Shown piece after piece: positions 1-63,131 of a stretch of 64,000 nt of DNA (position 1 is the first letter of the stretch; each line of letters starts with the position of its first letter). The notes below the pieces were generated by a model that worked only from the letters and a program-made list of their open reading frames with translations, had not been told where the DNA came from and searched no databases. The stretch spans positions 417,724 to 481,723 of the forward strand of contig NZ_JAQNDL010000002.1 of the NCBI RefSeq assembly GCF_028368995.1. Direction: 5' to 3'. Made by a program: the position numbers and the translations under genes. Origin of the DNA: Nannocystis bainbridge (GTDB taxonomy: Bacteria; Myxococcota_A; Polyangia; Nannocystales; Nannocystaceae).

Positions 1-714
1 GACAGCGGGACGTTCGTGATCCAGTTCGACATGGGCGAGGACGAGTGCGATCCGTGGGAGCGGATCTGTCCCGAGGGACAGAAATGCATGCCGTTCGCGG
101 ACGACGGCGGGTCGGCCTGGAATCGCTGGGGTTGTTTTCCGCTCGTGCCCGACCCGGCCGGCCTCGACGAGCCGTGCACGGTCATCGACAGCGCAGTGAG
201 CGGGAAGGACACCTGCGACGACGGGCTGCAGTGCTGGGACGTCGACGAGGACACCGGGATGGGCACGTGCCTGGCGATGTGCACGGGCACGCCGAACGAG
301 CCGATGTGCCCGATCCCGAACACGGACTGCACGGTCACGGCGGGCGACACCCTGGTCCTGTGCCTGCCGAGCTGCGATCCGCTGGCCCAGGACTGTCCGG
401 ACGGCGATCTCTGCCTCCCCAATCCACAAAACCCGGACAGGTTCCTCTGCGTCCTCGACGCGAGCGGCGAGGAAGGTCAGGTCTTCGACGCCTGCGAGTT
501 CCAGAACGCCTGCGACCCGGGCCTGGTGTGCGCACCGGTCGAGCTGGCGACGGAGTGCGACCCGCAGGCGCCCGGCTGTTGTTTGCCGTTCTGCGACGTC
601 TCGACGGCGAACACCTGCCCGGGGCAGGGGCAGGAGTGTCTGGCGTGGTCCGAGATGGGACAGGCGCCGCCAGGGCTCGAGAACGTCGGGTTCTGCGGCA
701 TTCCGTCGCCGTAG
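1..714 (+). CDS. Cys-rich, acidic secreted repeat protein (5' end lies outside window)
   Basis: Open frame runs from base 1 with no stop. Translation is Cys/Asp/Pro/Gly-rich with repeated C-x(n)-C-x-DG / C-P-x-G spacing, typical of myxobacterial Cys-rich repeat proteins. Composition is unlike the Arg/Ala-rich GC-frame artefacts. Confidence 0.6.
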   Translation, partial: DSGTFVIQFDMGEDECDPWERICPEGQKCMPFADDGGSAWNRWGCFPLVPDPAGLDEPCTVIDSAVSGKDTCDDGLQCWDVDEDTGMGTCLAMCTGTPNEPMCPIPNTDCTVTAGDTLVLCLPSCDPLAQDCPDGDLCLPNPQNPDRFLCVLDASGEEGQVFDACEFQNACDPGLVCAPVELATECDPQAPGCCLPFCDVSTANTCPGQGQECLAWSEMGQAPPGLENVGFCGIPSP

Positions 715-960
715 GGCTCACGTCGATGCGAAGGGCGCCGGCCGCCGCGGGCCTTCGGGACATGTCCGAAGAGTCAGGCGTGAGCGAACGCTGACGCCTG
801 GCTCACGTCGCTGCGAAGGCCCGCGCTGGATCGGGCCTTCGGGACATGTCTGTAGAGGCAGGCGGTAAGGCGGGCGCGAGGCTCATGACACTGCGAAGGC
901 CGGCATATGAGCGGGCCTTCGGGACATGTCCGAAGAGATAGGCGGGAGCGCGCGGGCGGG
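714..960. repeat. Three tandem copies of an ~82-bp unit (GGCTCAyGwCGmTGCGAAGG...CGGGCCTTCGGGACATGTCyGwAGAG...AGGCGG), each carrying the palindromic core CTTCGGGACATGTCCGAAG
   Basis: Direct reading: unit starts near 714, 800 and 880. Lies in the convergent intergenic gap between the Cys-rich protein gene and sodC. Confidence 0.8.
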
Positions 961-992: not shown

Positions 993-1571
993 TCACGCGC
1001 CCGGGGGGTTGGGGTTCTTGACCGGGGTGGTGTCGCCCGAGGTCGAGGTGATGATGCCGCAGGCGAGGCGGCCGCCGGCGTTGCCGGTGGGCTGGCCGAA
1101 ATCGTCGACCTTCTCGTGGACGATGATCGCGCGGCCGAGGACGTTGTAGGTGCCGCTGGCGATCGAGAAGTGGGCCGGGTCCATGGTCAGCGTCAGCTTG
1201 GCGTGGCCGTCGGCGCCGGCGTCGAGGTTGCCGAAGTCGCCCGGGTGGTGGGCGCCGGACCCGGGCGCGCCGTGGTCGACCTTGTCAGGGTTGAAGTGAC
1301 CGCCGGCCGACTCGCCGTCGGGCGAGGTGCAGTCGCCGAACTCGTGGACGTGCATGCCGTGCTTGCCAGGCGAGAGGCCAGTAATGTCGGCCTCGACCTT
1401 GATCTTGCCGTCGGCGAGCTGGGTGAAGTTGACGGTGCCGTTCACGCCGCTGCTCATCAGCGCGGTCAGGGTGGCCGTGGCGTCGGGCGAGGGCTCCTCG
1501 TCCGTCGTGCAGCCGGGCGCCCCCAGGAGCAGCAGCGGGAGCGTGGCGAGGGTGAATGCGGTCCGGGTCAT
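993..1571 (-). CDS. sodC: Periplasmic Cu/Zn superoxide dismutase with lipoprotein-type signal peptide
   Basis: Translation contains the hallmark SodC motifs HGMHVHEFGDCT, GGHFNP, PGDFGN and GNAGGRLACGII. N-terminus MTRTAFTLATLPLLLLGAPGC is a signal peptide with a lipobox-like Cys. Start chosen at the internal Met before the signal peptide. Confidence 0.9.
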   Translation of the reverse strand: MTRTAFTLATLPLLLLGAPGCTTDEEPSPDATATLTALMSSGVNGTVNFTQLADGKIKVEADITGLSPGKHGMHVHEFGDCTSPDGESAGGHFNPDKVDHGAPGSGAHHPGDFGNLDAGADGHAKLTLTMDPAHFSIASGTYNVLGRAIIVHEKVDDFGQPTGNAGGRLACGIITSTSGDTTPVKNPNPPGA

Positions 1572-2313: not shown

Positions 2314-3657
2314 ATGACTCTCGGGACATGTCTCTCGGCGCTGGTGGCGTGCAACGAGACGTCGGCGCCGGGCTACACGCTGGCGGGCGAGACGGAGGTC
2401 GAGGGCAGCAGCAGCGAGGGCACCGGCGAGCCGGGCGGGACGCAGCTGCCGGTGACGTTCTCGACGGGCTCGGGGGCGGCGTGCGGCGACGGGGTGCTCG
2501 ATGCCGGCGAGGCGTGCGACGACGGCAACCTCGAGGCCGACGACGGCTGCGACGCGAGCTGTTCGCCGATCGCGGCGGTGGAGTGGACGTACACGCACAA
2601 CGGCGGGGCCGGCCAGGACGACGTCGCCAGCGGGGTGGCGATCGACGGGACCGGCCGGGTGTTCGTGGTCGGGGCGGAGGTGGTGCAGTCGCGCGACGCG
2701 TGGATCGTGGCGCTGGCGCCGGAAGGCCACGAGCTGTGGCGCAAGACGATCGACGCGGCGGGCTTCGACGATGCGTTCGCCGAGGTGGTGGTCGACGCGG
2801 CGGGGCAGGTGTTCGCGGCCGGCCACGAGGAGCTGAGCCCGGGGCTGCGATCGCCGATGATCCGGGCGTTCACGGGCGAGGGGGCGGACCTGTGGAAGTT
2901 CAGCGAGCCGGCGGCAGGGGCCGGGGCGAGCGGGGTCGCGGGGCTGGCGGTGGCCGACGGGGCGATCTATTCGACGGGGTCGGAGGCGGGGTACCCGGTG
3001 CGGTTGGCGATCCGTCGCCACGATCCGGGGAGCGGAGCGGCGACGTGGAAGACGCTGGCGGCGGCAGGGACGGGCGACGCATACGCGGGCGGGATCGCGG
3101 CGGCGGGGGTGGAGATGTTGGCAGCGGGGGCGGCGGAGCTCGACGGGGTGCTGCACCCGCTGCTGGTCCGCGTGGGGCACGACGGGACGCTGATGGCGTC
3201 GACGGTCGAGGCGGAGCACGCAGGGGCGTGGACGGACGCGGTGGCGATCGGCAGCGAGGGCGAGGTGGTGGTGACGGGGCGGCTCGAGGCCCGGCCGGGC
3301 GCAGGCTTCGACGTGGCGGTGCGCCGAATCGCGGCGGGTGAGCTGGTGCGCTGGACGCAGTCGATCGATCAGGTGGCAGGCTTCGATACGGGCCGCGGGG
3401 TGGCGGTGGGCGCAGGCGAGGAGGTGTTCGTGGCCGGGGCGGTGACGAGCGCGAGCGGAGACCTCGAGATCTTCGGAGCGCGCCTGTCGGGGCTCGGCGA
3501 GACGCGCTGGACGCATGTGAACGCGAACCGCGGAGTCGGGCTGGACGACCACGGCTCGGCGGCGGCGTTCGGGCCGGGCTTCGTGGTGCTGGCGGGCGAC
3601 GAGCAGGTGCCGGGCGAGGGGGCGAACGTGTGGGTGCGTCGCTTCCGCGCGGAGTGA
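2314..3657 (+). CDS. Lipoprotein with Myxococcus-type Cys-rich repeat followed by beta-propeller (SBBP/delta-60-like) repeats
   Basis: Signal MTLGTCLSALVAC (lipobox). Motif CGDGVLDAGEACDDGNLEADDGCDASC (C-x2-C-DDGN...DGC-x3-C). Then repeated G-x-(V/I)-(F/Y)-V-x-G / W-x-x-x-x-D blades. Paralogous to 8868..10100, 45717..47387 and 59185..60720. Confidence 0.75.
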   Translation: MTLGTCLSALVACNETSAPGYTLAGETEVEGSSSEGTGEPGGTQLPVTFSTGSGAACGDGVLDAGEACDDGNLEADDGCDASCSPIAAVEWTYTHNGGAGQDDVASGVAIDGTGRVFVVGAEVVQSRDAWIVALAPEGHELWRKTIDAAGFDDAFAEVVVDAAGQVFAAGHEELSPGLRSPMIRAFTGEGADLWKFSEPAAGAGASGVAGLAVADGAIYSTGSEAGYPVRLAIRRHDPGSGAATWKTLAAAGTGDAYAGGIAAAGVEMLAAGAAELDGVLHPLLVRVGHDGTLMASTVEAEHAGAWTDAVAIGSEGEVVVTGRLEARPGAGFDVAVRRIAAGELVRWTQSIDQVAGFDTGRGVAVGAGEEVFVAGAVTSASGDLEIFGARLSGLGETRWTHVNANRGVGLDDHGSAAAFGPGFVVLAGDEQVPGEGANVWVRRFRAE

Positions 3658-3834: not shown

Positions 3835-4872
3835 ATGTCGTCGTCCGTCTGTCTTTCTTCGTTGCTCGCGCCGACCTGCGATCCGCCGCCCGATGCGGCG
3901 ATGATCGCCGAGACCTGCGCGATGGCGGATCCAGCGCAGCGCAACCTGTGGATCACGTACGTGTATCACCGGCTCGAGGTGGCGCTGGCGGGGCACCTCG
4001 GCGGCGAGGACGTCAGCTGGTGCGCGTACGGGACGTGGGCTTCGAAGAGCGCGGGGCGGTTCATCCGCGGCGAGGCGGTGGCCGAGGCGCTGCGGCTGGC
4101 GCGGCTGGGTGGGGCGGTGAGCCGGGTCGACGCGGAGGTGCGTGAGCGCATCGGTCGCGGCAACTTGCTGGTGTTCGCCGAGCTGGCGCCGCTGTTCCGC
4201 GCGCTGGTCGAGGTGCTGGCGCGGCCGGTCGGGCAGCGGCGCGCGGCGGCGGCGGTGGCGTTCGCGGGGCTGACGGAGGGGGCGACGCGCGAGGGCGGGC
4301 AGACGCTGCTGCGGCGGGCGTTCGCGGCCTATGTGACGGCGGCGGAGACGGGCGAGGCGAAGGCGCGGGCGGAGCAGATCCTGCTGGCGAACACGCTGGT
4401 GGGTTATCACGAGCAGATCCGGTTGCAGCCGGCGATCGCGGGGGCGCTGTCGGCCCCGCTGGCGCTGCTGGTGACGGCCGACGCGGCGCCGCTGCGACGG
4501 GCGCTGGGCGAGCGCCTCGGCGAGGTGGCGCGGTCGCTGCTGACGCGGTGGATGATGACGATCGAGCTGCCGGAGGGGGCGCTGGCGCTGGGGCGCGATG
4601 TGCCGGCGACCCGCGACGGGCGGATGTTCCCGGCCGCGCTGACGCAGATCACGGACCCGGAGCTGCGCGCGGTGCTGGAGGAGGTCGACCGCACGCCCGA
4701 TACGACGCAGGGCAGCGCGGCGGCCGACTGGGCGGCGCTGGCGGACCGCATGAACTTCATCGTCGATCTGTTCCGCTCGCGCCAGCGCGATTCGTCGCTG
4801 CGCCGGTCGCCGTTCCGCGCCGATCAGGTGGCGGCGATGCAGCTGGGGCTGCGGCCGCTCGGGCCGCTGTAG
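3835..4872 (+). CDS. Hypothetical protein
   Basis: 345-aa ORF with balanced, helix-rich composition. No family recognised. Confidence 0.5.
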   Translation: MSSSVCLSSLLAPTCDPPPDAAMIAETCAMADPAQRNLWITYVYHRLEVALAGHLGGEDVSWCAYGTWASKSAGRFIRGEAVAEALRLARLGGAVSRVDAEVRERIGRGNLLVFAELAPLFRALVEVLARPVGQRRAAAAVAFAGLTEGATREGGQTLLRRAFAAYVTAAETGEAKARAEQILLANTLVGYHEQIRLQPAIAGALSAPLALLVTADAAPLRRALGERLGEVARSLLTRWMMTIELPEGALALGRDVPATRDGRMFPAALTQITDPELRAVLEEVDRTPDTTQGSAAADWAALADRMNFIVDLFRSRQRDSSLRRSPFRADQVAAMQLGLRPLGPL

Positions 4873-4925
4873 GAAACTTCAGGCGGCGAACGCAGGCCCC
4901 GGGTCAGGAGCGGCGTGTGGTCTTT

Positions 4926-5010
4926 AGGACATGCTCGAGAGGACATGCTCATGTGGGCATGTCGAATCGGGCATGTTTGATGAGGCATGTCCGAATGGAC
5001 ATGCCGGGGT
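4926..5010. repeat. Six tandem ~14-bp units, each with the core R-GG-R-CATG-Y (aGGACATGCTCgag aGGACATGCTCatg tGGGCATGTCGaat cGGGCATGTTTgat gAGGCATGTCCgaa tGGACATGCCgggg)
   Basis: Direct reading. Lies in the convergent intergenic region between 3835..4872(+) and 5010..5402(-). Same half-site family as the 714..960 repeats. Confidence 0.8.
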
Positions 5011-5402
5011 CACGGCCGGACCCATCGCAGGACGGCGTCGGCGGCGGAGTCCGGGGAGGTGCTGAAGCACAGGCTGGCGCCCGGGGCGACGGCCTGGACG
5101 AGGTTGACGATCCGCTCGAACAGCAGCAGGTGGGCGGGCTGGGTGCGGATGCCGGCGCCGATCATGACGGCGGCAGGCGGACGCGCAGTGAGGCGGGCGC
5201 GCAGGACGGGCTCGGCCTCGGGCCAGCGGTCGGTGATCAGGCACCACTCGGCGTCGAAGCCGGCCGCGGTGGTGGCGTCGAGCGAGGCCTGGAGGCCGGC
5301 GGCGAGCTTGGGAGCGTCGAGGCCGGGGAACTGGCTGAAGTCGACGACGGCGGGGTCGAGGCCGACGAGCAGGACGAATTTCTTGGCGGAGGCGGTGGTC
5401 AT
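5010..5402 (-). CDS. Hypothetical small protein
   Basis: 130-aa ORF, MTTASAKKFVLLVGLDPAVVDF..., non-artefact composition. Confidence 0.5.
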   Translation of the reverse strand: MTTASAKKFVLLVGLDPAVVDFSQFPGLDAPKLAAGLQASLDATTAAGFDAEWCLITDRWPEAEPVLRARLTARPPAAVMIGAGIRTQPAHLLLFERIVNLVQAVAPGASLCFSTSPDSAADAVLRWVRP

Positions 5403-8867: not shown

Positions 8868-10100
8868 TCAACCCGACACGAACCGACGGATCCACAGGTC
8901 CGTGTCCGAGATGGCGACCGTCTCGAACCCGACGACGACGAAGAACTCGGGCCCGACCGCGACGTCGTAGCCGCGCTCGCTGAACCCGAGTGTCGTGTTG
9001 TCGTACAGTGCCGACCAGCGCGCCGCTCCGTCGCCCTCGAGCCGCGCCATGTAAAGATCCTCTTGCGCCGGACCGTCGCCGACCGACCCGGTCACGAGCA
9101 CCGACCCGTCGAAGTCGGCCGCCACTCCGAGCCCGCCGTACCCGTAATTCGAAGTATCGAGCAGATGCGTCCATCGCTCGCTCCCGTCGGCCGCGATCCT
9201 GCGCGCCGATTTCCCCTGGCTCAGCCATCCAGTCAACACGACGTCGCCTTCCTCGCCGATCGCCGTCACGGCGTGCCATGCCCCCGACGTGCCCGTCTCG
9301 ACCGCGAGCGACTGCAGCGCCCCGGACGCGTCGAACACCGCCGTCAGCGGCCGATCTTTCCCTTCGCCCGGAGGCAGCGCCGCGCCCGCGACGATCAACC
9401 GCCCGTTCGCCTCCGTGAGCCCGTACCCGCGCGTCGATCCCTCGGCCTTCGCCGGCGTCTCCCATACCGGCGCTCCCGAGCCCACGTTGTGCCGTCGCAG
9501 CACCATATGGGTGCCCGTCGAATCATTGAACGCCTCGCCGAGCGAGTACAGGCCCTCGTGCGCGAGCACCAGCGCCGTCACGCTCGAGCTCTCCTCGTCG
9601 GGCGTCGGCACCGAGTATGCCCACACGTCGTTGCCGTCGCGGTCGAGTCGGCGCACGACCCCCAGCCGCGACGCGTCCCACCCCGCGACGAAGATCGCCC
9701 CGTCGTCGCCGACCACGACATCATTGAACACCGCGTCGAGCTCCAGCGCCGCCGCGAACCGTCGCGTCCACAGCTCCGTGCCGTCGGGCGCGAGCACCAG
9801 CACGAGCCCGGCGAAGTTCTCGTCCGCGTCCGTCTCGAGCCCGACCACGACGATCCGCCCTTGCGCGTCGATCGCCACCGCGCGCGCCTCGTCGCGCCCC
9901 CCTGCGGCCCCGCCATGGACGTGCGTCCATTCGACCGCCGGCCCCTCGCACTCTGTCGGACACGCGGGGCCGGTGGTCGGGTCAGCTTCGGTCGTCGAGG
10001 ATGCGTCCGTCGCCGTCGTGTCGCCTGTATCGCCCGGAACGCCGGGGCAGGCTGTCGCGCACAAAAGGAAAGGCAGGGCGAGGATCGATCGCGTCATCAA
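8868..10100 (-). CDS. Beta-propeller repeat lipoprotein (paralog family)
   Basis: Signal MMTRSILALPFLLCATAC. Thr/Asp-rich linker, then blades with repeated VVVG / LWTRRF / VFVAGW motifs as in 2314..3657. Confidence 0.75.
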   Translation of the reverse strand: MMTRSILALPFLLCATACPGVPGDTGDTTATDASSTTEADPTTGPACPTECEGPAVEWTHVHGGAAGGRDEARAVAIDAQGRIVVVGLETDADENFAGLVLVLAPDGTELWTRRFAAALELDAVFNDVVVGDDGAIFVAGWDASRLGVVRRLDRDGNDVWAYSVPTPDEESSSVTALVLAHEGLYSLGEAFNDSTGTHMVLRRHNVGSGAPVWETPAKAEGSTRGYGLTEANGRLIVAGAALPPGEGKDRPLTAVFDASGALQSLAVETGTSGAWHAVTAIGEEGDVVLTGWLSQGKSARRIAADGSERWTHLLDTSNYGYGGLGVAADFDGSVLVTGSVGDGPAQEDLYMARLEGDGAARWSALYDNTTLGFSERGYDVAVGPEFFVVVGFETVAISDTDLWIRRFVSG

Positions 10101-13543: not shown

Positions 13544-13876
13544 GACGGGCGTGAGACCGGGGTGATCGTCGCGCTCGGCGGGGTGAACCCGTACTACGAT
13601 GATTGCCGCTCGGGCTTGCTGTGATTCAGCGCCAACCTCGACTCGGACTCGCGTTCGGGCAGCTCAGCAGCCATCGGGACGAGGTCGGCGTGTCGAGCAT
13701 GGCATCGGCGCTCGACCTCGCACGCTCCAGTCAGGGTCGACCGTGTCGCAGTAAGAGATCGATCGCGTCGAGCCTGTCACCGGCGAGATCGACAGCGTCG
13801 CAGTCCGTCGTCCGTCTCGTCCTCGCCTGTCCCTCGGGACAGCACGTGCCCGTCCAGGACCTGTTAGCATGGGCCC

Positions 13877-14908
13877 GTGACCGACGAACACTGCGCGGAC
13901 GCTGTCCAGATCCTCTCGCTCCGCGAGGTAGTGCGCAAACGGCCCGCCATGTACGTCGGGGGGACCGACGAGGGGACTGGCCCGTTGCACCTCCTGCTGG
14001 ACGTCCTCGCCGGTGCCGTCGAGCTGGCCGTGCGCGGTCGCTGCACCCGCATCGACATCGTCGTCGAGGCCGACGACCACATCACTGTCGCCGACGACGG
14101 CCCCGGCATCCCGGCGGCCGCGCTCGTCGACCTCCTCGAGGTCCCCGCGGGCCGGACCCGCGGCGAACTCACGTTCCTCTGCTCCGACCTGCCGCTCGCC
14201 GTCGCCCTGTGCGACCCCCTCGAGATCGACACCGTCCACGCCGGCGAGCAGGCGAGCGTGGTCTATGCCGCCGGCTTGCAGCGCGCTCCCGTGCGGGTGG
14301 CCCCTGCCGCACGGTCGTCGGGTACCCGGATCCGCTTCCGCCCCGATCCGCACATCTTCCAGTGCACGCGTGTCCCGCGGGCCGAGGCGGCGCGGCGCCT
14401 CGCCGACCTCGCGTTCGTCCTCCCCGCGGTGTCGCTGTCGTGGACGTTCGCCGAGCCCCGCGTAGCGAACCTCGCCGATCGCGTGCGTGTCGAAGTCGGG
14501 GCCTCGCCTTTCGGTGTTGCCCACCACCATGGCGCCTACGGCACCGGCGAGCGTCCGATCGCCGTCGAAGTCGCCCTCGCCTGGCGCGCCGAGCCGCGCG
14601 GACGGCCGCCGCAGATTCATGCCTTCGCCAACCTCCGGCCGAGCGCGGGCGGCCAGCACGTCCTCGGCGTCGCGGCGGGCGTGCGCCGGTTCCTGAAGGC
14701 CCGCGGCGACCGCGGCCTCCACGACCTCGTCGCCGCCGTCGCCGTGCAGCTCACCGACCCCCGATTCCGCGGAGCGTCGCAGAGCGTGCTGCTAGACGCA
14801 GGGGTGCGTGCCGCCGTCAAGCAGGCGACCCTGATCGCCTTGATGTCCTGGGCCGTGCGCGACCCGGAGGCCGTCGAAGCGCTGCATCGCCGTACGCGGG
14901 CCCGCTGA
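13877..14908 (+). CDS. GyrB-like GHKL ATPase domain protein (short stand-alone homolog of DNA gyrase B N-terminus)
   Basis: ILSLREVVRKRPAMYVGGTDEGTGPLHLLLDVLAGAVELAVRG...DIVVEADDHITVADDGPGIP aligns with the GyrB N-terminal Bergerat ATP-binding fold (LEAVRKRPGMYIG...HLV.EVVDN...DNGRGIP). Only 343 aa, so the Toprim and C-terminal domains are absent. GTG start. Confidence 0.65.
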   Translation: MTDEHCADAVQILSLREVVRKRPAMYVGGTDEGTGPLHLLLDVLAGAVELAVRGRCTRIDIVVEADDHITVADDGPGIPAAALVDLLEVPAGRTRGELTFLCSDLPLAVALCDPLEIDTVHAGEQASVVYAAGLQRAPVRVAPAARSSGTRIRFRPDPHIFQCTRVPRAEAARRLADLAFVLPAVSLSWTFAEPRVANLADRVRVEVGASPFGVAHHHGAYGTGERPIAVEVALAWRAEPRGRPPQIHAFANLRPSAGGQHVLGVAAGVRRFLKARGDRGLHDLVAAVAVQLTDPRFRGASQSVLLDAGVRAAVKQATLIALMSWAVRDPEAVEALHRRTRAR

Positions 14909-26584: not shown

Positions 26585-27108
26585 ACGTGAGCCTGCAGCC
26601 CGAAAGAACCGCGACAGCCGGCTGCCGATCGCGCGTCAGACCTCGCAGATGCACCGCGTAGTGGCCGTCACGCTTCGTCGACACGGGTCCACCGCGACTG
26701 GGTCTACGACCTCGGACCGTTCGTCTTCGATCGCCAGGCTTACGAGCGCGCGCTCGCCGAGTGACCCGCGGCGCGCGAGCTCCACCTTCTCCGCGGTCGT
26801 CGGGTTGTCCGTCCTCGAACCAGGGCACGCACTCCGAGCCGGCGTCGTCACACGCCGGCATCGTCAGAGCGCAGAAGTTCAGGCGACGAAGGGCCGGATC
26901 GCCGGGCGAGCCGCAGGCGCCGGCCGTTCGCTCACCGCCGACGAGGCGCGCGGTCGCAGCGAGCGACCGCGCGGCTGTGGACGGCGGAGCCACACCCGTC
27001 CGCCGCGTGTGGACCGCGGAGCCACAGACGCGCGGCCGGGGCCACGACATCGCGTGCACTGGGGTGGCACGGTCGGTGCATTCCGAGTCGGCACACCCGA
27101 GGAAACTC

Positions 27109-27510
27109 ATGCGCTTCCATACCCTCCTGAAGACCGCCTGCCTGTTCACACTCCTGCCCCTCGTCGCCTGCGACGTCGCGGACCTCGACGCCGAGAGCGT
27201 CCGCGTCGAGCATCTCGCCGAGGAGGACGTACCCCCGCCGCCGAGCGCCCTGCGCGACGCCCCGGCCGACGAGGACGCCGAGGGCATCTCGCTCGACCCG
27301 AGCCTCGAGGTCGCCGACGCGGGCGACCCGAGCGCGGCCACCTGCTTCACCGGTCAGGTGCAGTGGCAGGACAGCCCGAGCGGCATCTGCGGCGGGTGCC
27401 TGATCAACAACGCGTACCCGGGCCAGAAGTACAACCGCTATTACCGCACGTGTCAGAACGGGGCCTGGGGCTCGTGGACGTACTACAACAGCCCGTGCGT
27501 TGACTGCTGA
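27109..27510 (+). CDS. Small secreted lipoprotein with Cys-rich aromatic C-terminal domain
   Basis: SD GAGGAAA, then MRFHTLLKTACLFTLLPLVAC (lipobox). Acidic linker, then CFTGQVQWQDSPSGICGGCLINNAYPGQKYNRYYRTCQNGAWGSWTYYNSPCVDC (6 Cys, many Tyr/Trp). Confidence 0.55.
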   Translation: MRFHTLLKTACLFTLLPLVACDVADLDAESVRVEHLAEEDVPPPPSALRDAPADEDAEGISLDPSLEVADAGDPSAATCFTGQVQWQDSPSGICGGCLINNAYPGQKYNRYYRTCQNGAWGSWTYYNSPCVDC

Positions 27511-28325
27511 GACCTGGCTCGCCGCCCGTCACCGTGCCCGTGGCGGTGGCGGCGGGATCGCCGGCGCGCAAGCGCGTCGCCGATGGGAGCGCCGCGACAT
27601 GTCTTTATGGACAGGTCGCGGCGCTGTCGCTTCCGGGGAGGCGGATCCCGTTGCCGCCGGCGACCCGGTCACGGTTCGAAAGGCGGGAAGCCGCAGCAGC
27701 TCACGCCCTTGTCCCCGAGCCCCTGAGTGAGCGACAGTCGGCTCGTCGGCTCGTTAGCGCATCTGGAACCGTTCCACTGGGAAGGCCACGTAGGAGTGCC
27801 TGTGAATGGCTACGACGCTGCTCTGCGCGAGATAGTTGGTGATGTGGTGTCCTCGTGGAGCTAGACCTTCCTACGGGCCCGTATACGAGAGGTCGTCTCG
27901 AAACTGCCCGGATCGCGACGGTCCTGGCGATGCGTTGATTCCGCCGCGCTCGGTCGACGGCGCGAACGCCTGGACCGGCGCGACCTGGCTGTGGGCAGCG
28001 GAGCTCGACGAGGTCTGCAAAGCCTATCAGGGGCGTCAAGGTCATCCTGCGGGGGAGCTCGAAGCGATCGCAGCTGCGATGCACCGACTGAACGGGAACG
28101 CTTCACAACGCACTCGCTGCGTGTTCCGCTTCTTCTAGCGCAGGGCCGTTCCGCCGCAGCGGTTGCCCCCTCGGCCGCCTCGCGGGCGACGGCGAGGTCG
28201 TGCGCACGTGGGAGCGGCTCGACCGCGCGCTGCTCGACGGCCGCCTGCCTGCGCTGCAGCACGGCCGCCCGGAGTTCCCGCTGCGCGGCGACGGCTCGGC
28301 ACTCGAGCGTGAAGCCGAGGCCGTG

Positions 28326-42381: not shown

Positions 42382-42500
42382 GACCGCTCTCCAGGCCAGT
42401 CCACGACCAGGCCAGTCCACGACCCAGAAGCCCGTGACCCAGAAGCCCGTGACCAAGAAGCCCGCGACCAGGAAGCCCGCGACCAAGAAGTCCGCGACCA
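42382..42500. repeat. Short tandem repeats: 2x ccaggccagtccacga, then 6x ~15 bp (cmrgaagcccgygac)
   Basis: Direct reading. The second array encodes the KKPxT repeats of the SUKH protein. Confidence 0.8.
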
Positions 42501-43111
42501 GGAAGCCCCGGGAAATGCAGGTCAAGGAAACGACGGACGCTAGCCGGACCGCTCGTGCTGAACGAATGAGGACAGCCCTCGGGCGGATCAAAGCGTGGAT
42601 GCGCTCCAACAACGCCGAGGACATTGTCGACAACCTCGCACCACCAACGTCCGACGAAGAAATTGCTTCGTGCGCGAAAGCCCTCGGTTTCGCGGTACCC
42701 GATGATTTGCGTGAGCTCTGGTTGCTTCACGGCGGTCAGAACCTGGAGAAGACACATCCGTTTCTGAATTCCCACGACCTTCTCAGCCCTGCGAGGGCGG
42801 CGAGCGTGCGCCACGATTTCTTGTCGACGCTCCCGACGCTCCGTGATGCGCCCGACGACCTCGTCGAGGTGACGGAAGAGGAGCTCGCGTCGGACGAATG
42901 GTTGACGATCGGCAAGATCGGCCGATGGGACGTATGGGTGATTTGTGCCCTTACGGGACGCCTCTTCGGCTCGAGTCCCGACTATCCGCAGTTGTACGCA
43001 ATCTCAGGCTCGCTGCTCGATTGGCTCGAGACCTTCGCGGAGGGGGCGGAGAACGGCGAGTACGAGGTGACTCGATTGGGGAAGTCGTGCTTTGTGTCCC
43101 CGATCCTCTGA
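42434..43111 (+). CDS. SMI1/KNR4 (SUKH-1 superfamily) immunity-like protein with N-terminal Lys/Thr-rich tandem repeat region
   Basis: ASCAKALGFAVPDDLRELWLLHGGQN...WLTIGKIGRWDVWVI is the SMI1_KNR4 core. N-terminus (PVTKK PATRK PATKK SATRK) is encoded by 15-bp tandem repeats at 42420-42500. Lower-GC gene. Alternative start at MQVKETT (42512). Confidence 0.7.
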   Translation: MTQKPVTKKPATRKPATKKSATRKPREMQVKETTDASRTARAERMRTALGRIKAWMRSNNAEDIVDNLAPPTSDEEIASCAKALGFAVPDDLRELWLLHGGQNLEKTHPFLNSHDLLSPARAASVRHDFLSTLPTLRDAPDDLVEVTEEELASDEWLTIGKIGRWDVWVICALTGRLFGSSPDYPQLYAISGSLLDWLETFAEGAENGEYEVTRLGKSCFVSPIL

Positions 43112-51972: not shown

Positions 51973-52143
51973 ATGAGCAAAGGCGGCGGCAGCAAGGGCG
52001 GTGGCGGTAGCGGGACCAAGGGCGGTGGCGGTAGCGGGACCAAGGGCGGTGGCGGTAGCGGGACCAAGGGCGGCGGCAATTGGCCGAGCACCACGGGGAA
52101 CCCCTCGGGTGGGGGCAGAGGCAACAACCCTCCATCAAAGTAG
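51973..52143 (+). CDS. Gly-rich small repeat protein (56 aa; 3x GGGGSGTKG)
   Basis: ATG preceded by AAAGGA. Encoded by three perfect 27-bp tandem repeats (ggcggtggcggtagcgggaccaagggc). Could be non-coding repeat DNA. Confidence 0.3.
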   Translation: MSKGGGSKGGGGSGTKGGGGSGTKGGGGSGTKGGGNWPSTTGNPSGGGRGNNPPSK

Positions 52144-54103: not shown

Positions 54104-55469
54104 TCAGCGGACCGCGTCCACCGTGCGGCGGAGGTCGATCCGGGGGCCGCCGCAGCGGCCGCGCGTGCTCTCGACCATCGCCTCGATCGCCTTCCACTGC
54201 GCGTCGCGCATCGGCTCGAACGGCGCCGGCGGGAGCGCGACGATCGGCTGCACCGCCTCCACGATCCGGTCCGTGGCCGTCTCGAGCGCCTGACGGAGGT
54301 AGTCATCCGCGAGGTGCGTGTAGCGCTTCGTGGTTCGCTCCTGCTTGTGGCCCAGCAACTTGCCGACCGTGCTGAGCGATGCGCCGCTCATGATCGCGTC
54401 GCTGGCGAAGGAGTGCCGGAGGTCGTGCAGCCGGACATCGGGGATCCCGGCGGCGGCGCGGATGTTCTCCCACGTGCGATTGATGCCCCGGAGGCGCTTG
54501 CCGTTCGGGGTACGCAGCACGTACCCCGTGCTCGGGTTGCCCGCCTGGTCGTGAATGTGCTTCAGGAGCGCGAGCACGCGGGCAGACACGGGCACCTTGA
54601 GCTGTCCCGTCTTGGTGTCGGGGATGTTCAGGAGCGAGTGTTGGAAGTCGACCATGGCCCACGTGAGCGTCAGGATCTCGTCGCGACGTCGGCCAGTGAG
54701 CGCGAGCAGGTCGATCGCCCAGACGCTCACGAGCTTGACGTGCCCCTTGCGTCCGGCGGGGATCTTGAGCCCGACGAGGATCACCGCGTGCACGCGCTGG
54801 CGCTCCTCGGGGGTCAGGAAGCGCTCGCGCTCCGGAATGGCGAAGCGCTTGACCTTGTGCGCCGGGTTCCGCAGCTCGGCGAGCTCCCAGTCTTCGATGA
54901 TGCGCGTGTAGAGACTACCGATCACGCACAGGACGTAGTTCGCGACGGAAGGGCCCCGCACTTTCTTGAGCTTGGCGTGCAGCGCCGCGATCTCGGCCTT
55001 CTTCACGGTGCGGAAGTCGCGATCTCCGATCGTCGGCAGGATCACCGTCTCGAGGTGTTCCTTGTAGTTCACCGCTGAACCAGGCTTAAGGTGCACGTCG
55101 ACGTAGTCACGGATGAAGCGCTCCACCAGCTCGCGGACCGTCGTGATCTGGGATGGCCGCGATTCCGGCTGTTCCAGTCGAGCGGCCTTGTCCGCGGCTT
55201 GCTGGCCGGATTGTTCATCGGCGCTCGCGCTGACGGCCGCGTTAGTGAGCAGGACAGCGGCACGCCGCCGCGCCTCGTCAATGGACAGTGCGGACCCGAG
55301 CAGTCCGATCTTTCTCCCGGTGGTCCTTGCCGTCCAAGCGGTATCGAACCAGCGCGACTTTCTTCCCCGTAGGCAGAACCCGCAAGATGAAGCCCGGGAG
55401 CGCTTCGCAGGTGACTTCGTACATCGTCGCGCGAGGCTTGCACTCGCGCACGAACGCAGCAGTGATCAT
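54104..55469 (-). pseudogene. int: P4-type tyrosine integrase, frameshifted (N-terminal arm-binding domain in one frame, core-binding and catalytic domains in another)
   Basis: N-terminal YEVTCEALPGFILRVLPTGKKVALVRYRLDGK (P4-integrase N-terminal domain) in frame A stops at 55278. Frame B continues with TTGRKIGLLGSALSIDEARRRAA...RELVERFIRDYVD...HDLRHSFAS...LGHKQERTTKRYTHL (catalytic R..HxxR..Y). A 1-nt shift near 55300 is required to join them. No tRNA gene found adjacent. Confidence 0.75.
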
Positions 55470-55748
55470 GAACCCCTACCTTCCTACCCCTAGTTTTCGA
55501 GACAAATTCGAGCCAAGCTAGAGCGACTTAAGACCTGTCCGAAAGTGCACAATGTCCTGTGCACGGCCGCGAAGGGCGGTTTCAGGACAAGCGTATCACA
55601 TTGGTGATGTGATAGGTGCGATGATTCCACCGCGGGCGTGACGAGGCCCAGCGGGAGAGCCTGTCCCGAAGGACACGTATTCCGATGAGACCCGCGGCAC
55701 ACCGTGCCGGCACTATCCATCGATCTGTCCCGAAGGACAGCCTACGTC

Positions 55749-57092
55749 TCACGCCAGCAGCTCGGGGATCGTCTGGCTGACGAGGCCTTCGTCGGCGCCG
55801 AACGAGGGGTCGGGGCTGCCGAACAGCTTGAGCAGGGTGAACGGGACCTTGCTGGCGTTGTCGCCGGCGGCGCGGTGGTGGATGTCGCCGCGCAGCAGGC
55901 CGCCGGCCTTGCCGACGACCAGCAGCGGGAAGTCGTCCATGCGGTGGTCCCACGGCTGGCCGACGCACGAGGTGGTGTAGACGGCGGTGTTGTCGAGCAG
56001 GTTGCCGGTGGCGTCGGGGGTGTCGCGGAGGCGCTTCAGCAGCTCGGCGAGGCCGGACATGGCGTAGGCGACGCCGGTGTGGAAGCCGCCGGTGGCGTAG
56101 TCGATGCCCATGGGGCTGAGGCGGTGGCCGAAGTCCTCGTGGAAGGTGACGCTGCCGAGGCCGGCCTCGGTGTAGGGGGCGTGGCAGGCGGCGCACGAGA
56201 ACACGAAGGAGGCCACGCGGGTCAGCTCGCACGAGAAGGCGAAGGCGAGCAGGTCGGCGAAGGCGCGGCAGCGGTCGAGGGAGATCGAGCCGTCCTCGCC
56301 GCGATCGGGGTAGGCGACGTCGGGGTCGATCGGGGTGCCGCAGTCGGCGGAGGTGATGGTGGCGTCGATCTGGGTCTGCAGCTCGGCGATGCCGTCGAGG
56401 TGGCGGTCGAGGCGGAGCCGGTCCTCGGCGCCGAGTTGGTGCTGCAGCGCCCGGGTCTCCTCGGCGACGGCGTCGAGCAGGCTCTTGCGGCGGAACAGCG
56501 AAGGGTCGGGCTCCTGGGCGCCGGAGAGCGAGAGCAGGGTGGCGAACAGGTGGGCGGGGCTGTAGTTGGGCGGGTTGGGGGCGTTGGGGCCGTTGAAGGA
56601 GATGTTGAAGTCGAGCGCGCCGGCGCCGGTGACGTTGCTGATGCCGACGTGGAGGCCGCTGGGGAAGGCGGTGTCCTTGTTGATCAGGGCGGCGATCCGC
56701 TGGTCGATCGAGGGCGCGGTGACGTCGCCGTTCATGGCCGCCTGGGCGCCGGTGAGCACGGCGGCAGGGGCGGACTTGTGGGCGTAGAGCGCGGGGATCT
56801 TGACGTCGTAGCCGGACAGCACCGACAGCCACGGCTTGAACTCGGCGAGCGGCATGAGCGAGGGGCTGAGGCTCCACGCGGCGCCCTGGCCGACAGCGGC
56901 CGGGACCCATTGGGTCGGGTCGGCGCCGTTGCCGAAGAACCAGGTCAGGTAGCGCGGCAGCAGCGGGGTGGCGTCGGCGTAAGCGGTGCCGTTGCCGTCG
57001 AGCATGGCGGCGAGGCGGGGCAGCGGCACGGCCACGGCGACGCCGGCGAGCATGCCCCGGAGGACGGTGCGGCGCGGGATGGGGCGGCTCAT
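55749..57092 (-). CDS. DUF1552-domain protein with Tat-type signal (RRTVLRGMLAGVAVAV)
   Basis: Tat motif. Family-typical length (447 aa). Translationally coupled (ATGA overlap) to the upstream DUF1588/DUF1592-type gene. This pairing is the conserved DUF1552/DUF1588 two-gene module. Confidence 0.8.
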   Translation of the reverse strand: MSRPIPRRTVLRGMLAGVAVAVPLPRLAAMLDGNGTAYADATPLLPRYLTWFFGNGADPTQWVPAAVGQGAAWSLSPSLMPLAEFKPWLSVLSGYDVKIPALYAHKSAPAAVLTGAQAAMNGDVTAPSIDQRIAALINKDTAFPSGLHVGISNVTGAGALDFNISFNGPNAPNPPNYSPAHLFATLLSLSGAQEPDPSLFRRKSLLDAVAEETRALQHQLGAEDRLRLDRHLDGIAELQTQIDATITSADCGTPIDPDVAYPDRGEDGSISLDRCRAFADLLAFAFSCELTRVASFVFSCAACHAPYTEAGLGSVTFHEDFGHRLSPMGIDYATGGFHTGVAYAMSGLAELLKRLRDTPDATGNLLDNTAVYTTSCVGQPWDHRMDDFPLLVVGKAGGLLRGDIHHRAAGDNASKVPFTLLKLFGSPDPSFGADEGLVSQTIPELLA

Positions 57093-58849: not shown

Positions 58850-59184
58850 GGACCTCCGGGCGCGCGCGATCGCGGAGCGAGGGCGGACGCTCCGGCAACG
58901 TAGCGCCGAGCGCACGCGGCCGTCAACGCGGGCAGAAATCACGAGCGTCGCAAGCCCGCGCGCACGGAGGCGCTGGAGCGCGCGAGGCAGGGGTCTGCGG
59001 TCCGCACACGCGGTGGAGCGACCTGCGGGCGCGAGGCCGCGAGGGGGATGTCCCTTGGGACAGGTTGATGGCGAAGTCGATGCGCCGGCTGAAAGAACAT
59101 GTCCGAAGAGACATGGCATGGGATGTCGGGCGCGATTGCGATCGTCGCCTGCCGCGGAGACTTTGTTACCCTCGCGCCATTCTC

Positions 59185-60720
59185 ATGACTTCCACGCTTC
59201 GCGCGCCCCTGGTCCTCTTCACGTCGCTGCTGGCCGCCTGCGGGCCCGGCGAACCGTCCGACAGCGAGAGCGGCAGCGAGGGGGAGCCGACCTCGACGTC
59301 GACCACATCGACGACGGGCGAGCCGAGCACGGAGGCGCCGACGACCACGACGCCGGGCACGACCACGGTCGACGAGACGACCACCGAGGCGGGCACGACG
59401 GGTGAGCCGGGCGAGCCGGTCGGCTGTGAGCGGCTGGCGGGACCGGCCGACGGGCCTGTGGACTGGTACCTGCGCTGCGGCGGTCTACAGGACGAGCGCA
59501 TCACGGGGATCGCCACCGACGCCGCCGGGGCGATCTACGTCGGGATCGAGCTGCGCGTGCTCGAGGGGTCGTCGCCGCTGCTGATCGGCGAGGTCACGGT
59601 GACGCCCGGCGAGCTGTCCGACATCCTGCTGATCAAGCTGTCGAGCGCGGGCGAGCCGCAGTGGGTGCGTCACTTCACCGGACCCGGGGACCAGAGCGTG
59701 TACGGCCTGGTCGCGTGCGGCGGCGGCGTAGCGATCCACGGCTGGGCCGAGGGGGAGTCGCTCGATCTCGGCGGCGGGCCGATCGGCGGGGCGTTCCTCG
59801 CGTCGTTCGACGCCGAGGGCCAGCACCGCTGGAGCCGCGCGGTGCCGGCGGTGAATGACGACGGGCACGTGACGTTCTCCGCGATGGCGTGCGACGGGGC
59901 GGGCACGCTCGCGGTCACCGGCGATCTCCGCCACGGCGCCGATTTCGGCGGCGGGCCGGTCATGGCGCCCGAGCTGTACGACGGCTTCGTCGTCACGTAC
60001 GACGCCGCGGGCGAGCTGCAGTGGGCGCGGCAATTCGGCAGCACGGGCGACGCCACGGCGCGCGGGCGGGCGCTGGCGTTCGCGCCGGCGGGCGAGGTCG
60101 TGGTGGTGGGCGCGTTCCAGGGCAAGGTCGACCTCGGCGGCGGCACGCTGTCGACGGACTTCCAGGACGACATGCTGGTCGCCAAGTACAGCGCGGCCGG
60201 CGAGCACGTGTGGAGCCAGCAGGTCGGCGACTGGGGCCTGCAGTACGGGACCGCGATCGCGGCCGACTCGGCCGGCGGGATCACGCTCGGGGGCATCTTC
60301 CTCGAGGAGATCGAGATCGGCGCGGACAAGTACACCAACGTGTTCCCGGAGCAGATCCCCGACGCCCACGGGACCCTCTACGACGCCGTGCTGGCGCAGC
60401 TCGATCCGGCCGGGGCGGTGCAGGCGTCGCAGCACGTCGGCACCATGGGCGACGACGACATCATCGACCTCACGTTCGACGCGGCCGATGCGCTGCTGAT
60501 GACCGCCTTCACCGAAGAGGCGTTCACGATGCGCGCGCGGGTCGGCCAGGAGACGACCTGGGAGTGGACGACCGATCAGTTCGCGCGCGCCTACTCGACG
60601 CCGTCGGGCGATGCGGCGGTGCTGCTCGGCGTGTCGGCGGGGGTCGACATCGACCTCGGCGCGGGGCCGCTGGTCGGCCGGGGCGAGACGGACTTCCTGG
60701 TCGTGCGGCTGCGCCGCTGA
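59185..60720 (+). CDS. Beta-propeller repeat lipoprotein with Thr/Pro-rich linker (paralog family)
   Basis: MTSTLRAPLVLFTSLLAAC lipobox. Blades with IYVGIE / VAIHGW / LAVTGD / VVVVGAF motifs, as in the other family members. Confidence 0.75.
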   Translation: MTSTLRAPLVLFTSLLAACGPGEPSDSESGSEGEPTSTSTTSTTGEPSTEAPTTTTPGTTTVDETTTEAGTTGEPGEPVGCERLAGPADGPVDWYLRCGGLQDERITGIATDAAGAIYVGIELRVLEGSSPLLIGEVTVTPGELSDILLIKLSSAGEPQWVRHFTGPGDQSVYGLVACGGGVAIHGWAEGESLDLGGGPIGGAFLASFDAEGQHRWSRAVPAVNDDGHVTFSAMACDGAGTLAVTGDLRHGADFGGGPVMAPELYDGFVVTYDAAGELQWARQFGSTGDATARGRALAFAPAGEVVVVGAFQGKVDLGGGTLSTDFQDDMLVAKYSAAGEHVWSQQVGDWGLQYGTAIAADSAGGITLGGIFLEEIEIGADKYTNVFPEQIPDAHGTLYDAVLAQLDPAGAVQASQHVGTMGDDDIIDLTFDAADALLMTAFTEEAFTMRARVGQETTWEWTTDQFARAYSTPSGDAAVLLGVSAGVDIDLGAGPLVGRGETDFLVVRLRR

Positions 60721-61199
60721 TCAGACCGGACGCGTCAGCTCGACCTGGTCGATATCAGGCCGCCGCCGGCGACGATGGGGAGGTAGTTCCCGCGCTTGCG
60801 GTCGCTGCCGTAGTGGGCGCCGAGAGCGACGCGGAGGTGACGCTCGGCCACGGCCTGCTGGTCTTGATCGGCGCGCTGGAGGTTGTGCGCGCCTTCCTCG
60901 GCCAGCCGCAGCAGCTCGGCGGAGGGGGCTGGACTCGGTCGGCTCGGCTCGTGCGCCACGGCGAGGACGATAGCGGGGCGCCTGCAGCCGGGCAACGTGC
61001 AGTTCCACGCGGGCGCCGCGGGCGCGAGATGGCTTTCGGGACAGGTGTGAAATGGCGCGTGGTGTGGCTGTTAGCTGTCTATGAGGACATGTCCTTAGAG
61101 ACAGCATCTTGGGTGAGCATAAGGAGCGCCCGTGCTCGACTGCGTCACGCGGTGGGGCTCGAGATCACGAGGTCGCCGTGCGACTCGAGCCGCCGACGC

Positions 61200-61766: not shown

Positions 61767-61783
61767 CCTGACAGGACCTGTCA
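61767..61783. promoter_or_regulatory. Perfect palindrome CTGACAGG-A-CCTGTCAG in the 38-bp divergent intergenic region. Candidate operator of the adjacent HTH-WYL regulator
   Basis: 8-1-8 perfect inverted repeat abutting the regulator's GTG start and 22 bp from the DHFR-like start. Confidence 0.5.
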
Positions 61784-62773: not shown

Positions 62774-63131
62774 ATGGGGTTGCTCTTGGGACATGTCATC
62801 GAGGACATGCCTTAAAGTACAATGCTTCGAAGACAGGACCTTCAGGACATGTCCGAAGGTTCGTTCGCGGGATGCGCCCGCTTCCAGTTCATGCGATCGA
62901 TTTCGTCGATGAGGCATGGGGGCGTGGAGCGACGGCACGCGCCCCCATGCGTTGCCCGGTCGCTTCGCCGCGGTCCGGGTGGCATCTACGCCGGCTGCGC
63001 AGGGCCCTCGCGGGTCGTCCTGGTCGGCTCCCCGAGGTGGGTTTGCGAAGGTTGTCGCGCGTCGCGCGAGCGCGGGATGCCTCGCCATCGCTCGCGCGGG
63101 CGACCTATGCTCGCGGCCTCAAAGGTAGTCC

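Follow-up and report, generated by a model that had tools for sequence, protein, structure and literature searches.

Repetitive extragenic palindromes (REPs) are repeats of 20-40 bp that form an imperfect stem-loop and carry a GTAG or CGTC tag at one end (PMC3733652). The gene of the cognate REP-associated tyrosine transposase (RAYT), a Y1 transposase, is flanked by the repeats (PMC2817692). Transcription termination, mRNA stabilisation, and the binding of gyrase or IHF have been proposed as roles of REPs (PMC2817692, PMC3733652, bioRxiv 10.64898/2026.03.23.713779). Here, a family of 14-bp palindromes of the form TGTCC-N4-GGACA is described, which recurs in a stretch of 64,000 nucleotides from Nannocystis bainbridge (contig NZ_JAQNDL010000002.1, positions 417,724 to 481,723), hereafter called the window, and in related bacteria. 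It is best seen as a repeat located at the 3' ends of genes, which resembles REPs and bacterial interspersed mosaic elements (BIMEs), is specific to Nannocystaceae-like bacteria, and has an unusual architecture.

The resemblance to the REPs and BIMEs of Enterobacteria and Pseudomonas covers several properties. The family is a short, clade-restricted, high-copy extragenic palindrome, it lies in 3' untranslated regions (UTRs) and in gaps between convergent genes, and it occurs there singly or in regular clusters of variable copy number. The architecture is different. The unit is a perfect dyad of 14 bp with a free 4-bp centre, whereas a REP is an imperfect stem of 20-40 bp with a conserved bulge; a palindrome of ~20 bp is present in the Nannocystaceae family only where flanking half-sites occur. 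Furthermore, the units abut at exactly 14 bp without the linker motifs of BIMEs, neither a master sequence nor a GTAG/CGTC tag is found, and some intragenic copies are shared between genera. Since the unit is palindromic, its orientation cannot be defined.

Other known systems share part of these features. The DNA uptake sequences of Neisseria and the uptake signal sequences of Pasteurellaceae likewise reach thousands of copies, are conserved at the family level, form inverted pairs downstream of genes, and include intragenic copies in tolerated frames. However, they are contiguous asymmetric 9-12-mers, without two half-sites around a free spacer and without phased tandem arrays. The heptad or iteron arrays of ribbon-helix-helix proteins, such as omega of pSM19035, ParG, and MetJ with its met-boxes, consist of short abutting direct or inverted sites bound by cooperative, DNA-wrapping dimers; the plasmid heptad and iteron systems differ in having few arrays, which are located in promoters or centromeres. 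Mycobacterial interspersed repetitive units are tandem intergenic units at the gene junctions of a high-GC genome, with reading frames running through the repeat and stop or start codons overlapping it, but they measure 46-101 bp, are not palindromic, occupy a few dozen loci, and are oriented with transcription. The DosR/DevR box, TTSGGGACTWWAGTCCCSAA, can be compared with one extended window copy (TTCGGGAC-AT-GTCCGAA), which has GGGAC/GTCCC half-sites and TTC/GAA flanks as in that box. The centre of this copy is 2 bp shorter, the TTCG/GAAG flank is just one of many spacers of the family, and the 3'-end position and copy number of the family do not fit a response-regulator regulon. The nucleoid protein CdbA of Myxococcus xanthus is reported to bind more than 500 chromosomal sites with a GC-rich motif containing a 4-bp spacer, with intergenic enrichment and little effect on transcription (PMC7156744). 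The CdbA motif is described there as a direct repeat and most peaks are placed within genes; a link to the 14-bp family would be speculation.

Literature searches on the motif strings, on Nannocystis repeats, and on myxobacterial REP/RAYT systems yielded no description of the family, and the REP surveys examined do not mention Myxococcota or myxobacteria. The 14-bp family looks undescribed so far.

The repeat unit and its copies in the window

Exact TGTCC-N4-GGACA occurs six times in the window, compared to 0.03 expected; with up to one mismatch, 14 copies are found against 2.0 expected. GACATGTC is present 8 times (0.9 expected), and the 18-mer TTCGGGACATGTCCGAAG, which stems from an 80-82-bp tandem repeat, 4 times at up to three mismatches (0.05 expected). 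The unit stands alone or in abutting head-to-tail arrays, and this one description accounts for every form seen. Both an apparent 'inverted' form, GGACA/TGTCC, and the exact period of 14 bp result from the head-to-tail abutment. At flank positions -5 to -1 of the unit the consensus is GGACA, i.e. the next half-site, which means that roughly half of all units adjoin another one in register. A set of three covers 42 bp, equal to four helical turns.

An earlier note on this DNA, made from the sequence alone, had reported a family built on the hexamer half-site GGGACA/TGTCCC with an everted form TGTCCC-N3-GGGACA. The quoted strings are present at all loci it listed and the family is real, but the unit was wrongly defined in both half-site and spacer. 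The hexamer is found 38 times against 30.4 +/- 5.9 expected, a count reached by 13 of 100 shuffles, and this lack of enrichment rules it out as the unit. The everted form with a 3-bp spacer is not enriched either (1 against 2.9 expected); the true everted form is TGTCCC-N2-GGGACA, with 12 copies at up to two mismatches (2.8 expected), including 3 exact ones. The six tandem 14-bp units described at 4926-5010 are borne out by GRCATG cores at 4930, 4944, 4958, 4972, 4986, and 5000, spaced by exactly 14 bp, and a pattern of three cores at this spacing has 4 matches in the window versus 0.00 in shuffles. Tandem Repeats Finder is blind to this array because its units are only ~60-70% alike. It does detect an 80-82-bp repeat at 715-950, in agreement with the 82-bp tandem units reported before. 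The copies in the window are as follows, with a slash marking the boundary between abutting units or half-sites.

67..80: exact single unit TGTCCCGAGGGACA in coding DNA, inside the Cys-rich open reading frame (ORF) 1-714 (+)
715..950: three tandem ~82-bp units, between the convergent ends of ORF 1-714 (+) and the Cu/Zn superoxide dismutase (SOD) lipoprotein gene 993-1571 (-)
2315..2342: two lattice units TGACTCTCGGGACA/TGTCTCTCGGCGCT, in codons 2-10 of a DUF4215 lipoprotein gene with its ATG at 2312
4918..5010: six to seven units in one array, abutting, partly degenerate, and in exact 14-bp phase, between the stops of genes 3835-4872 (+) and 5010-5402 (-), i.e. at convergent ends
13828..13841: exact single unit TGTCCCTCGGGACA; the GyrB-N-terminal-like gene 13877-14908 (+) starts 35 nt downstream
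27594..27618: GCGACA/TGTCTTTATGGACA/GGTCGC, a unit with 1 mismatch and a half-site on either side, 89 nt past the stop codon of gene 26761-27510 (+)
36121..36134: AGGCCTTCGGGACA, a weak copy of doubtful membership that has 2 mismatches, matching in the right half-site and a TTCG spacer alone
55662..55675: exact unit TGTCCCGAAGGACA, upstream of the integrase gene and 73 nt past the stop codon that ends the DUF1552 gene 55749-57092 (-)
55726..55739: exact unit TGTCCCGAAGGACA, 9 nt past the stop of the same DUF1552 gene (-)
59049..59131: exact unit TGTCCCTTGGGACA (59049-59062) and lattice GAACA/TGTCCGAAGAGACA/TGGCATGGGATGTC (59095-59127), in the divergent gap between a DUF1592-family gene (-) and the lipoprotein gene 59185-60720 (+)
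61030..61103: TGGCTTTCGGGACA with 2 mismatches and abutting units TGTCTATGAGGACA/TGTCCTTAGAGACA (61076-61103), located past the RibD_C-like gene 61200-61745 (-), whose 3' end is 96 nt away
62780..62863: GGGACA/TGTCATCGAGGACA/TGCCTTAAAGTACA and GGACCTTCAGGACA/TGTCCGAAGGTTCG, starting 13-20 nt past the stop of the WYL/helix-turn-helix (HTH) regulator gene 61808-62773 (+)

In the array at 4918..5010, the last unit, TGTCCGAATGGACA (4988-5001), is exact. Each ~82-bp unit at 715..950 consists of a GC-rich hairpin (GAAGGCCCGC..GCGGGCCTTC) followed by TTCGGGACATGTCCGAAGAGACAGG, which corresponds to 1.5-2.5 lattice units, and the cores lie at 754-771, 838-855, and 918-935. The orthologous locus of N. 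punicea (L002 7570-7610; loci outside the window are labelled L and a number) holds a single copy of this repeat, compared to three in the window. Its GC hairpin reads GAAGACCCGC..GCGGGTCTTC, in which a compensatory change from G:C to A:T preserves the stem. The copy at 67..80 may be due to chance or driven by coding, since it is read I-C-P-E-G-Q, in the Cys frame that intragenic copies otherwise avoid. The site at 36124-36138, which had also been counted among the loci of the family, is merely one half-site with its flank, two mismatches away from the unit.

Position relative to genes

Gene positions were assigned with a codon-usage caller, which was trained on database gene calls, reproduced them, and was applied to 617 kb of high-GC loci (86% coding). 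Motif-independent loci were fetched via proteins and total 177 kb; named among them are loci of N. pusilla, of N. radixulma (two), of two metagenome relatives, and of a Nannocystaceae metagenome-assembled genome. Loci from Polyangium (L100) and Archangium (L101) were likewise obtained via proteins. In total, ~0.9 Mb of sequence fragments was sampled.

In the motif-independent loci, 16 exact units fall into 33 kb of intergenic DNA and 2 into 144 kb of coding DNA, which makes them ~35x denser between genes. That the motif lies almost always in intergenic DNA, as had been stated before, is therefore correct for the composite motif. The intergenic clusters with an exact unit (n=56) are distributed over 32 convergent, 19 co-directional, and 5 divergent gaps. 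Per kb, this corresponds to 2.82 clusters in convergent, 0.46 in co-directional, and 0.23 in divergent gaps, a 12x difference between the first and the last. Frequently, the elements occupy the entire space between two convergent genes. Measured from the flanking stop codon, the first unit is a median of 16 nt away, and 43 of 92 such distances are at or below 11 nt; for flanking start codons, the median is 255 nt. In co-directional gaps, the cluster is nearer to the 3' end of the upstream gene in 20 of 24 cases (p=0.0015). Under random placement within the same gaps, 31.9 +/- 2.5 distances to a stop would be at or below 11 nt, compared to 42 observed; in gaps with at least 100 nt free, the corresponding numbers are 1.3 expected and 7 observed. 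The TGA stop codon often lies within or against the first half-site, which then reads TGACC instead of TGTCC. At L056 8640-8860, a single open frame connects a radical-SAM-like gene with an aldo-keto-reductase start, MKYRTLPG, and runs across the 6-unit array between them (..PADMSAG..SQDMSVR..PQDMSSR..); the TGA of another frame overlaps that aldo-keto-reductase ATG.

These positions are at odds with the placement of the family upstream of lipoprotein genes and with a global regulator acting at the promoters of secreted lipoprotein genes, both suggested in the earlier note. The copies at 62786-62859 begin 13-20 nt past the WYL stop and ~270 nt before the next gene, so that describing them as upstream of a lipoprotein gene is misleading; those at 4926-5010 and 715-950 lie between convergent ends, and the copy at 55726 is found 9 nt past a stop. 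Among the intergenic clusters with an exact unit, 5 of 56 are divergent and 32 of 56 convergent, and the median distances of 16 nt to stops and 255 nt to starts point the same way. Within the window, only the copies at 13828, 59049-59131, and 2315 are near a gene 5' end. The genes downstream of the few 5'-proximal copies share no common function, and no regulator gene recurrently adjoins them.

In the metagenome set, roughly one in three multi-unit clusters is located within an ORF that shows a same-frame coding signal on both sides. Intragenic copies almost always read ..V-P-x-D-M-S-x-G-T.., and the codon phase of their first T is 1 or 2 in 59 cases (30 and 29) and 0 in 3, indicating that the TGT (Cys) frame is avoided. 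The elements can thus occupy coding DNA where the peptide is tolerated. Some intragenic matches are coding coincidences, e.g., the low-density lipoprotein receptor A repeat D-C-x-D-M-S-D-E.

Conservation and array dynamics

The half-site positions of the unit are 83-100% conserved, and the four central positions are close to background. Neighbouring units are exactly 14 bp apart in 102 of ~170 pairs; distances of 13 or 15 bp never occur. An identical spacer is shared by 15 of the 102 phased neighbours versus 2.5% of dispersed pairs, from which it follows that arrays grow by local duplication. Half-sites and phase persist in arrays long after the spacers have diverged.

Positional conservation in relatives had been named in the earlier note as a check, and half-sites are indeed kept at three orthologous sites, in a DUF4215 gene, in thiD, and behind an amidase gene. 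In the DUF4215 start copy, GGACATGTCT is retained in the window, in N. radixulma (L023 7578), and in a metagenome relative (L024 7615), while the spacer (CTCG/ATTT/TTTT) and residues 2-4 of the protein (TLG/SIW/TFW) differ among the three. Within thiD, a double unit is preserved in register and half-sites, with differing encoded residues, in both Nannocystis (..LRDMSEET..) and the metagenome locus L065 (..LKDMSPRT..), whose proteins are 58% identical; this double unit uses rare codons in Nannocystis. The unit located 9-11 nt past the amidase stop is common to N. pusilla and N. radixulma (L021, L022), with a changed spacer. By inspection, ~40 of 45 half-site positions are identical at orthologous sites, compared to 8 of 20 spacer positions. 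The number of units varies in arrays: behind the gene for a 345-aa protein, 6, 4, and 3+3 units of differing sequence are found in the window, L023, and L024, respectively, where the orthologues of the array at 4918-5010 lie at L023 11190-11250 and at L024 11065-11120 and 11228-11270.

Distribution among bacteria

Units with up to one mismatch are 6-25 fold enriched in all seven protein-fetched Nannocystis or Nannocystaceae-like loci, and 47 of them occur in the 177 kb of motif-independent loci. Extrapolated from these 177 kb, a 12-Mb genome is estimated to contain roughly a thousand exact units and ~three thousand with up to one mismatch. No exact unit is present in the Polyangium L100 or Archangium L101 loci. 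A metagenome scan with the exact double unit returned 72 loci (514 kb), and 48 further exact units lie outside the seeds in high-GC loci. Among these loci, L065 shows synteny with the Nannocystis thiD region at 58-79% amino-acid identity. The 14-bp family is specific to Nannocystaceae-like bacteria. The exact double unit is absent from viral contigs, and a phage or plasmid-borne origin was rejected on this basis.

Species-representative genomes were also scanned with the 18-mer TTCGGGACATGTCCGAAG. This gave 20 loci, a number near chance, 6 of which belong to five Nannocystis species, and one match (N. punicea L002) is the orthologue of window ~880-1000. The near-chance result indicates that this spacer-specific 18-mer is not itself the repeat.

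Several metagenome loci deserve separate mention. The 13.5-kb contig L056 has arrays in nearly every gap and 43 units with up to one mismatch. L024 contains five tandem ~85-bp units at 120-620 and four 51-bp units at 2730-2910, each of which consists of one 14-bp unit followed by a GGTGGCAGCAT- or GGCGTGGCAG-like string; these longer mosaics are comparable to window 715-950. Strings resembling sigma-54 sites (TGGCAG..) in the L024 tandem units were dismissed, as their spacing, by inspection, is off the -24/-12 consensus. Contigs of 58-62% G+C (L036, L041, L044, L060, L066, L075, and L083) carry one isolated exact double unit and no other units. There, the double unit (e.g., L060 5723-5795) directly precedes a conserved 13-codon ORF (MSFDAIEGADLMA*-like), and it may be an unrelated operator or leader peptide with the same dyad.

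Duplex DNA or hairpin

The 10-mer GGACAUGUCC is self-complementary, and arrays can form stable hairpins of 9-10 bp. As RNA, the window array 4918..5010 folds with -55.4 kcal/mol on the + strand and -40.9 on the - strand (z -5.9 and -5.7 against shuffles). Base pairing does not appear to be what is conserved. Among 74 degenerate units beside exact ones, double changes that keep pairing number 7, compared to 9.5 expected under independence, and of the single changes 105 break pairing and 33 leave a G.U pair. Across 24 co-directional gaps, folding is more stable for the sense strand in 4 and for the antisense strand in 16. An invariant stem combined with a free loop is the opposite of what selection on structure alone would leave, and it is the classic two-half-site signature of a homodimer. 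Maintenance of pairing by compensatory changes, strand specificity and, for terminators, a U-tract, which would mark a structured RNA family or an intrinsic terminator, are not borne out. Rfam gave no match at gathering thresholds or at E<=1, and a known RNA family was rejected on this basis. A CsrA sponge based on the repeated GGA was dropped, as the elements are strand-symmetric and the GGA lies within stems.

Canonical terminators, i.e. a GC hairpin with a T-run, are at about chance level in the window and occur at 14 of 431 array-less gene 3' ends across related loci. At array-associated 3' ends, a site resembling a canonical terminator follows the array within ~100 nt in only 1 of 60 cases. 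The terminator scan of the window flags 59115-59098 (- strand), itself a repeat copy, as terminator-like. In L061/L098, L077, and L057, the order is stop codon, array, terminator; arrays are therefore transcribed 3'-UTR DNA, like the REPs of E. coli.

Interpretation and alternative explanations

The unit, its phasing, its abundance, its clade restriction, its bias towards 3' ends, and the conservation of half-sites rather than spacers are seen directly. From these, we infer the existence and nature of a binding protein and a function at gene boundaries. Specifically, the 14-bp units may be read as duplex DNA by a putative dimeric protein, a tentative reading to which a probability of about 0.45 is given. 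Inverted half-sites are conserved, the spacer is free, and base pairing is not required, as expected for a dimeric operator; sites upstream of genes at promoter distance, as expected for a regulon, are not seen. Hence, the earlier suggestion of sites for a dimeric DNA-binding protein stands with respect to the sequence pattern (invariant half-sites, free 4-bp spacer, 14-bp phase, and no covariation), and its promoter or global-regulator part falls away. In the proposed mechanism, a homodimeric, sequence-specific protein would recognise the two 5-bp half-sites on double-stranded DNA and, on arrays, would occupy adjacent sites at intervals of 14 bp. Where transcription units end, the bound protein would serve to mark or insulate the boundaries of genes. 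It might restrict read-through from one gene into the next, or attract topoisomerase activity to places where positive supercoils accumulate, both of which have been proposed for REPs and BIMEs. Array units are gained and lost via local duplication.

A more far-reaching version can be formulated, which appears improbable. In this version, arrays would be loading platforms for an abundant Nannocystaceae-specific putative dimer that polymerises in the 14-bp register (three dimers per four turns) immediately past stop codons. In a lineage with hardly any canonical intrinsic terminators, this protein would delimit or terminate transcription units in both directions, and conserved intragenic copies such as that in thiD would be regulated internal stops.

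Several observations weigh against a dimer at gene boundaries. The 15% spacer sharing reflects ongoing duplication, which is equally expected of a selfish repeat. Many, though not all, of the short stop-to-array distances come from arrays filling short gaps, and the third of multi-unit clusters located inside ORFs is not obviously predicted for a boundary element. The self-complementary GGACAUGUCC makes a structural role of arrays in RNA or single-stranded DNA possible and, as the arrays are transcribed, a role at the RNA level fits as well. Moreover, the gene neighbourhood of the copies points to no binding protein. The WYL/HTH regulator (61808-62773), whose gene is flanked by copies, was considered as the binder and rejected, because the different operator that is probably its own also occurs in Polyangium and Archangium, which lack the 14-bp family. 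This sequence, CTGACAGGACCTGTCAG (CTGACA-N5-TGTCAG), lies at window 61768-61784 between the divergent RibD_C-like and WYL/HTH (YafY-type) genes. The palindrome is kept in Nannocystis (L021, L022), Polyangium L100, and Archangium L101, at about 9960-9980. It is probably the operator of the WYL/HTH regulator and distinct from the 14-bp family.

A selfish element of the type of REPs or REP doublets forming hairpins (REPINs) would be copied as hairpins in single-stranded DNA by a domesticated Y1 (RAYT-like) transposase, with the half-sites needed by the transposase and insertions at 3' ends tolerated. Abundance, extragenic location, clustering, and the bias towards 3' ends and convergent gaps all fit such an element, as do the variable unit number at orthologous gaps, the embedding of units in longer tandem mosaics (window 715-950, L024 120-620, L024 2730-2910), and the identical spacer in 15 of 102 neighbours. 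Intragenic copies are tolerated in two of three codon phases (30, 29, 3), as is the case for selfish palindromes inside genes. However, no master sequence dominates, with dispersed units sharing a spacer in 2.5% of pairs, and the GTAG and CGTC tags are found at 2 of 249 and 14 of 249 runs, respectively. The unit of 14 bp is also shorter than the 20-40 bp of REPs (PMC3733652), hairpin covariation was not found, and no RAYT gene was seen in the ~0.9 Mb sampled, without a systematic search. The thiD and start-codon copies stay in register across genera with changed spacers, which indicates purifying selection at fixed sites and not turnover. A selfish origin is thus considered somewhat unlikely. 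Regarding the earlier wording of a REP/MITE-like repeat, the first part is supported by a clade-specific, high-copy, extragenic palindrome that clusters at 3' ends in variable copy number. The anatomy of a miniature inverted-repeat transposable element (MITE), with terminal inverted repeats around a body and target duplications, is not supported: the conserved part is the 14-bp unit only, flanks differ between loci, and longer repeats are tandem duplications. An RNA-level 3'-UTR element is judged unlikely. Its hairpins (5-bp stems in single units, 9-10 bp between GGACAUGUCC 10-mers) would terminate transcription without a U-tract, or would block 3'-5' exonucleases and stabilise the upstream mRNA, possibly with a hairpin-specific protein. 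This would agree with arrays that start a median of 16 nt past stop codons and lie between stop and canonical terminator in several loci, with the rarity of canonical terminators (14 of 431 gene 3' ends, and ~chance in the window), and with the window array folding far better than its shuffles (z -5.9, -5.7). In E. coli, REPs in 3' UTRs serve to terminate and to stabilise transcripts (bioRxiv 10.64898/2026.03.23.713779). For structure alone, however, any GC-rich palindrome would do, whereas here the stem is invariant and the loop free. There is no compensatory excess and most single changes disrupt pairing, the sense strand is not the better folder (4 versus 16 of 24), independent hairpins would not need to abut at exactly 14 bp, and Rfam holds no match even at E<=1.

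Promoter operators of a global regulator or of a partition-type protein, notably at secreted lipoprotein genes, are highly improbable. The 5-4-5 geometry of the palindrome is that of HTH-dimer operators such as the FNR box, and a few copies are near starts, namely at 13828 (35 nt upstream), in the divergent gap 59049-59131, and in the conserved DUF4215 start copy. Yet only 5 of 56 clusters occupy divergent gaps, at a density 12x lower than in convergent gaps, which hold no promoters, and the median start-codon distance is 255 nt. The genes beside 5'-proximal copies are without common function, the extrapolated ~1,000-3,000 copies per genome are far above the size of a regulon, and the adjoining WYL regulator has a different operator of its own, CTGACA-N5-TGTCAG. 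Unlike parS, the family is not clustered near the origin, which speaks against partition-type sites.

Other features of the window

The window has a G+C content of ~70%, and two proteins encoded in it show 100% identity to Nannocystis bainbridge proteins from a 2.0-Mb contig. Its gene content, as assigned with Pfam, is an ordinary myxobacterial chromosomal set that includes the Cu/Zn-SOD lipoprotein, DUF4215, DUF1552, and DUF1592-family proteins, Ser/Thr kinases, LysR and AraC regulators, the tyrosine integrase, and the WYL/HTH regulator. No tRNA or tmRNA genes are present in the window. The product of gene 13877-14908 has 343 aa with weak HATPase_c and DNA_gyraseB (transducer) matches and lacks Toprim, and represents a GyrB-N-terminal-like paralogue. 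The tyrosine integrase gene 54104-55126 contains a C-terminal DUF4096 (IS4/IS5 transposase) fragment, and the two identical units lie in its 620-nt upstream gap. In-frame tandem coding repeats unrelated to the family occur at 42404-42508 (15/30-bp units) and at 51986-52077 (24-bp x3.8). A long CGA-rich coding repeat of 18-21 bp near the window end (63373-63602) is likewise unrelated.

Significance for Nannocystaceae

The 14-bp dyad in exactly phased arrays is unlike every described REP family found. In the annotation of Nannocystaceae genomes, caution is needed, as ORFs run through arrays and stop codons lie within the first half-site. If the proposed reading is right, the units would be a practical marker for gene 3' ends and for the assignment of metagenomic contigs to the clade. 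Should the family turn out to be no more than a selfish repeat of the REP type, the range of such elements would nonetheless be extended to Myxococcota. If the units are read by a dimeric protein at gene boundaries, the gene ends of Nannocystaceae genomes (12-13 Mb) would bear a sequence-defined punctuation mark in an estimated thousand or more copies. The half-sites would then point to a specific binding protein and could lead to a new myxobacterial factor that acts in the nucleoid, at boundaries, or in termination.

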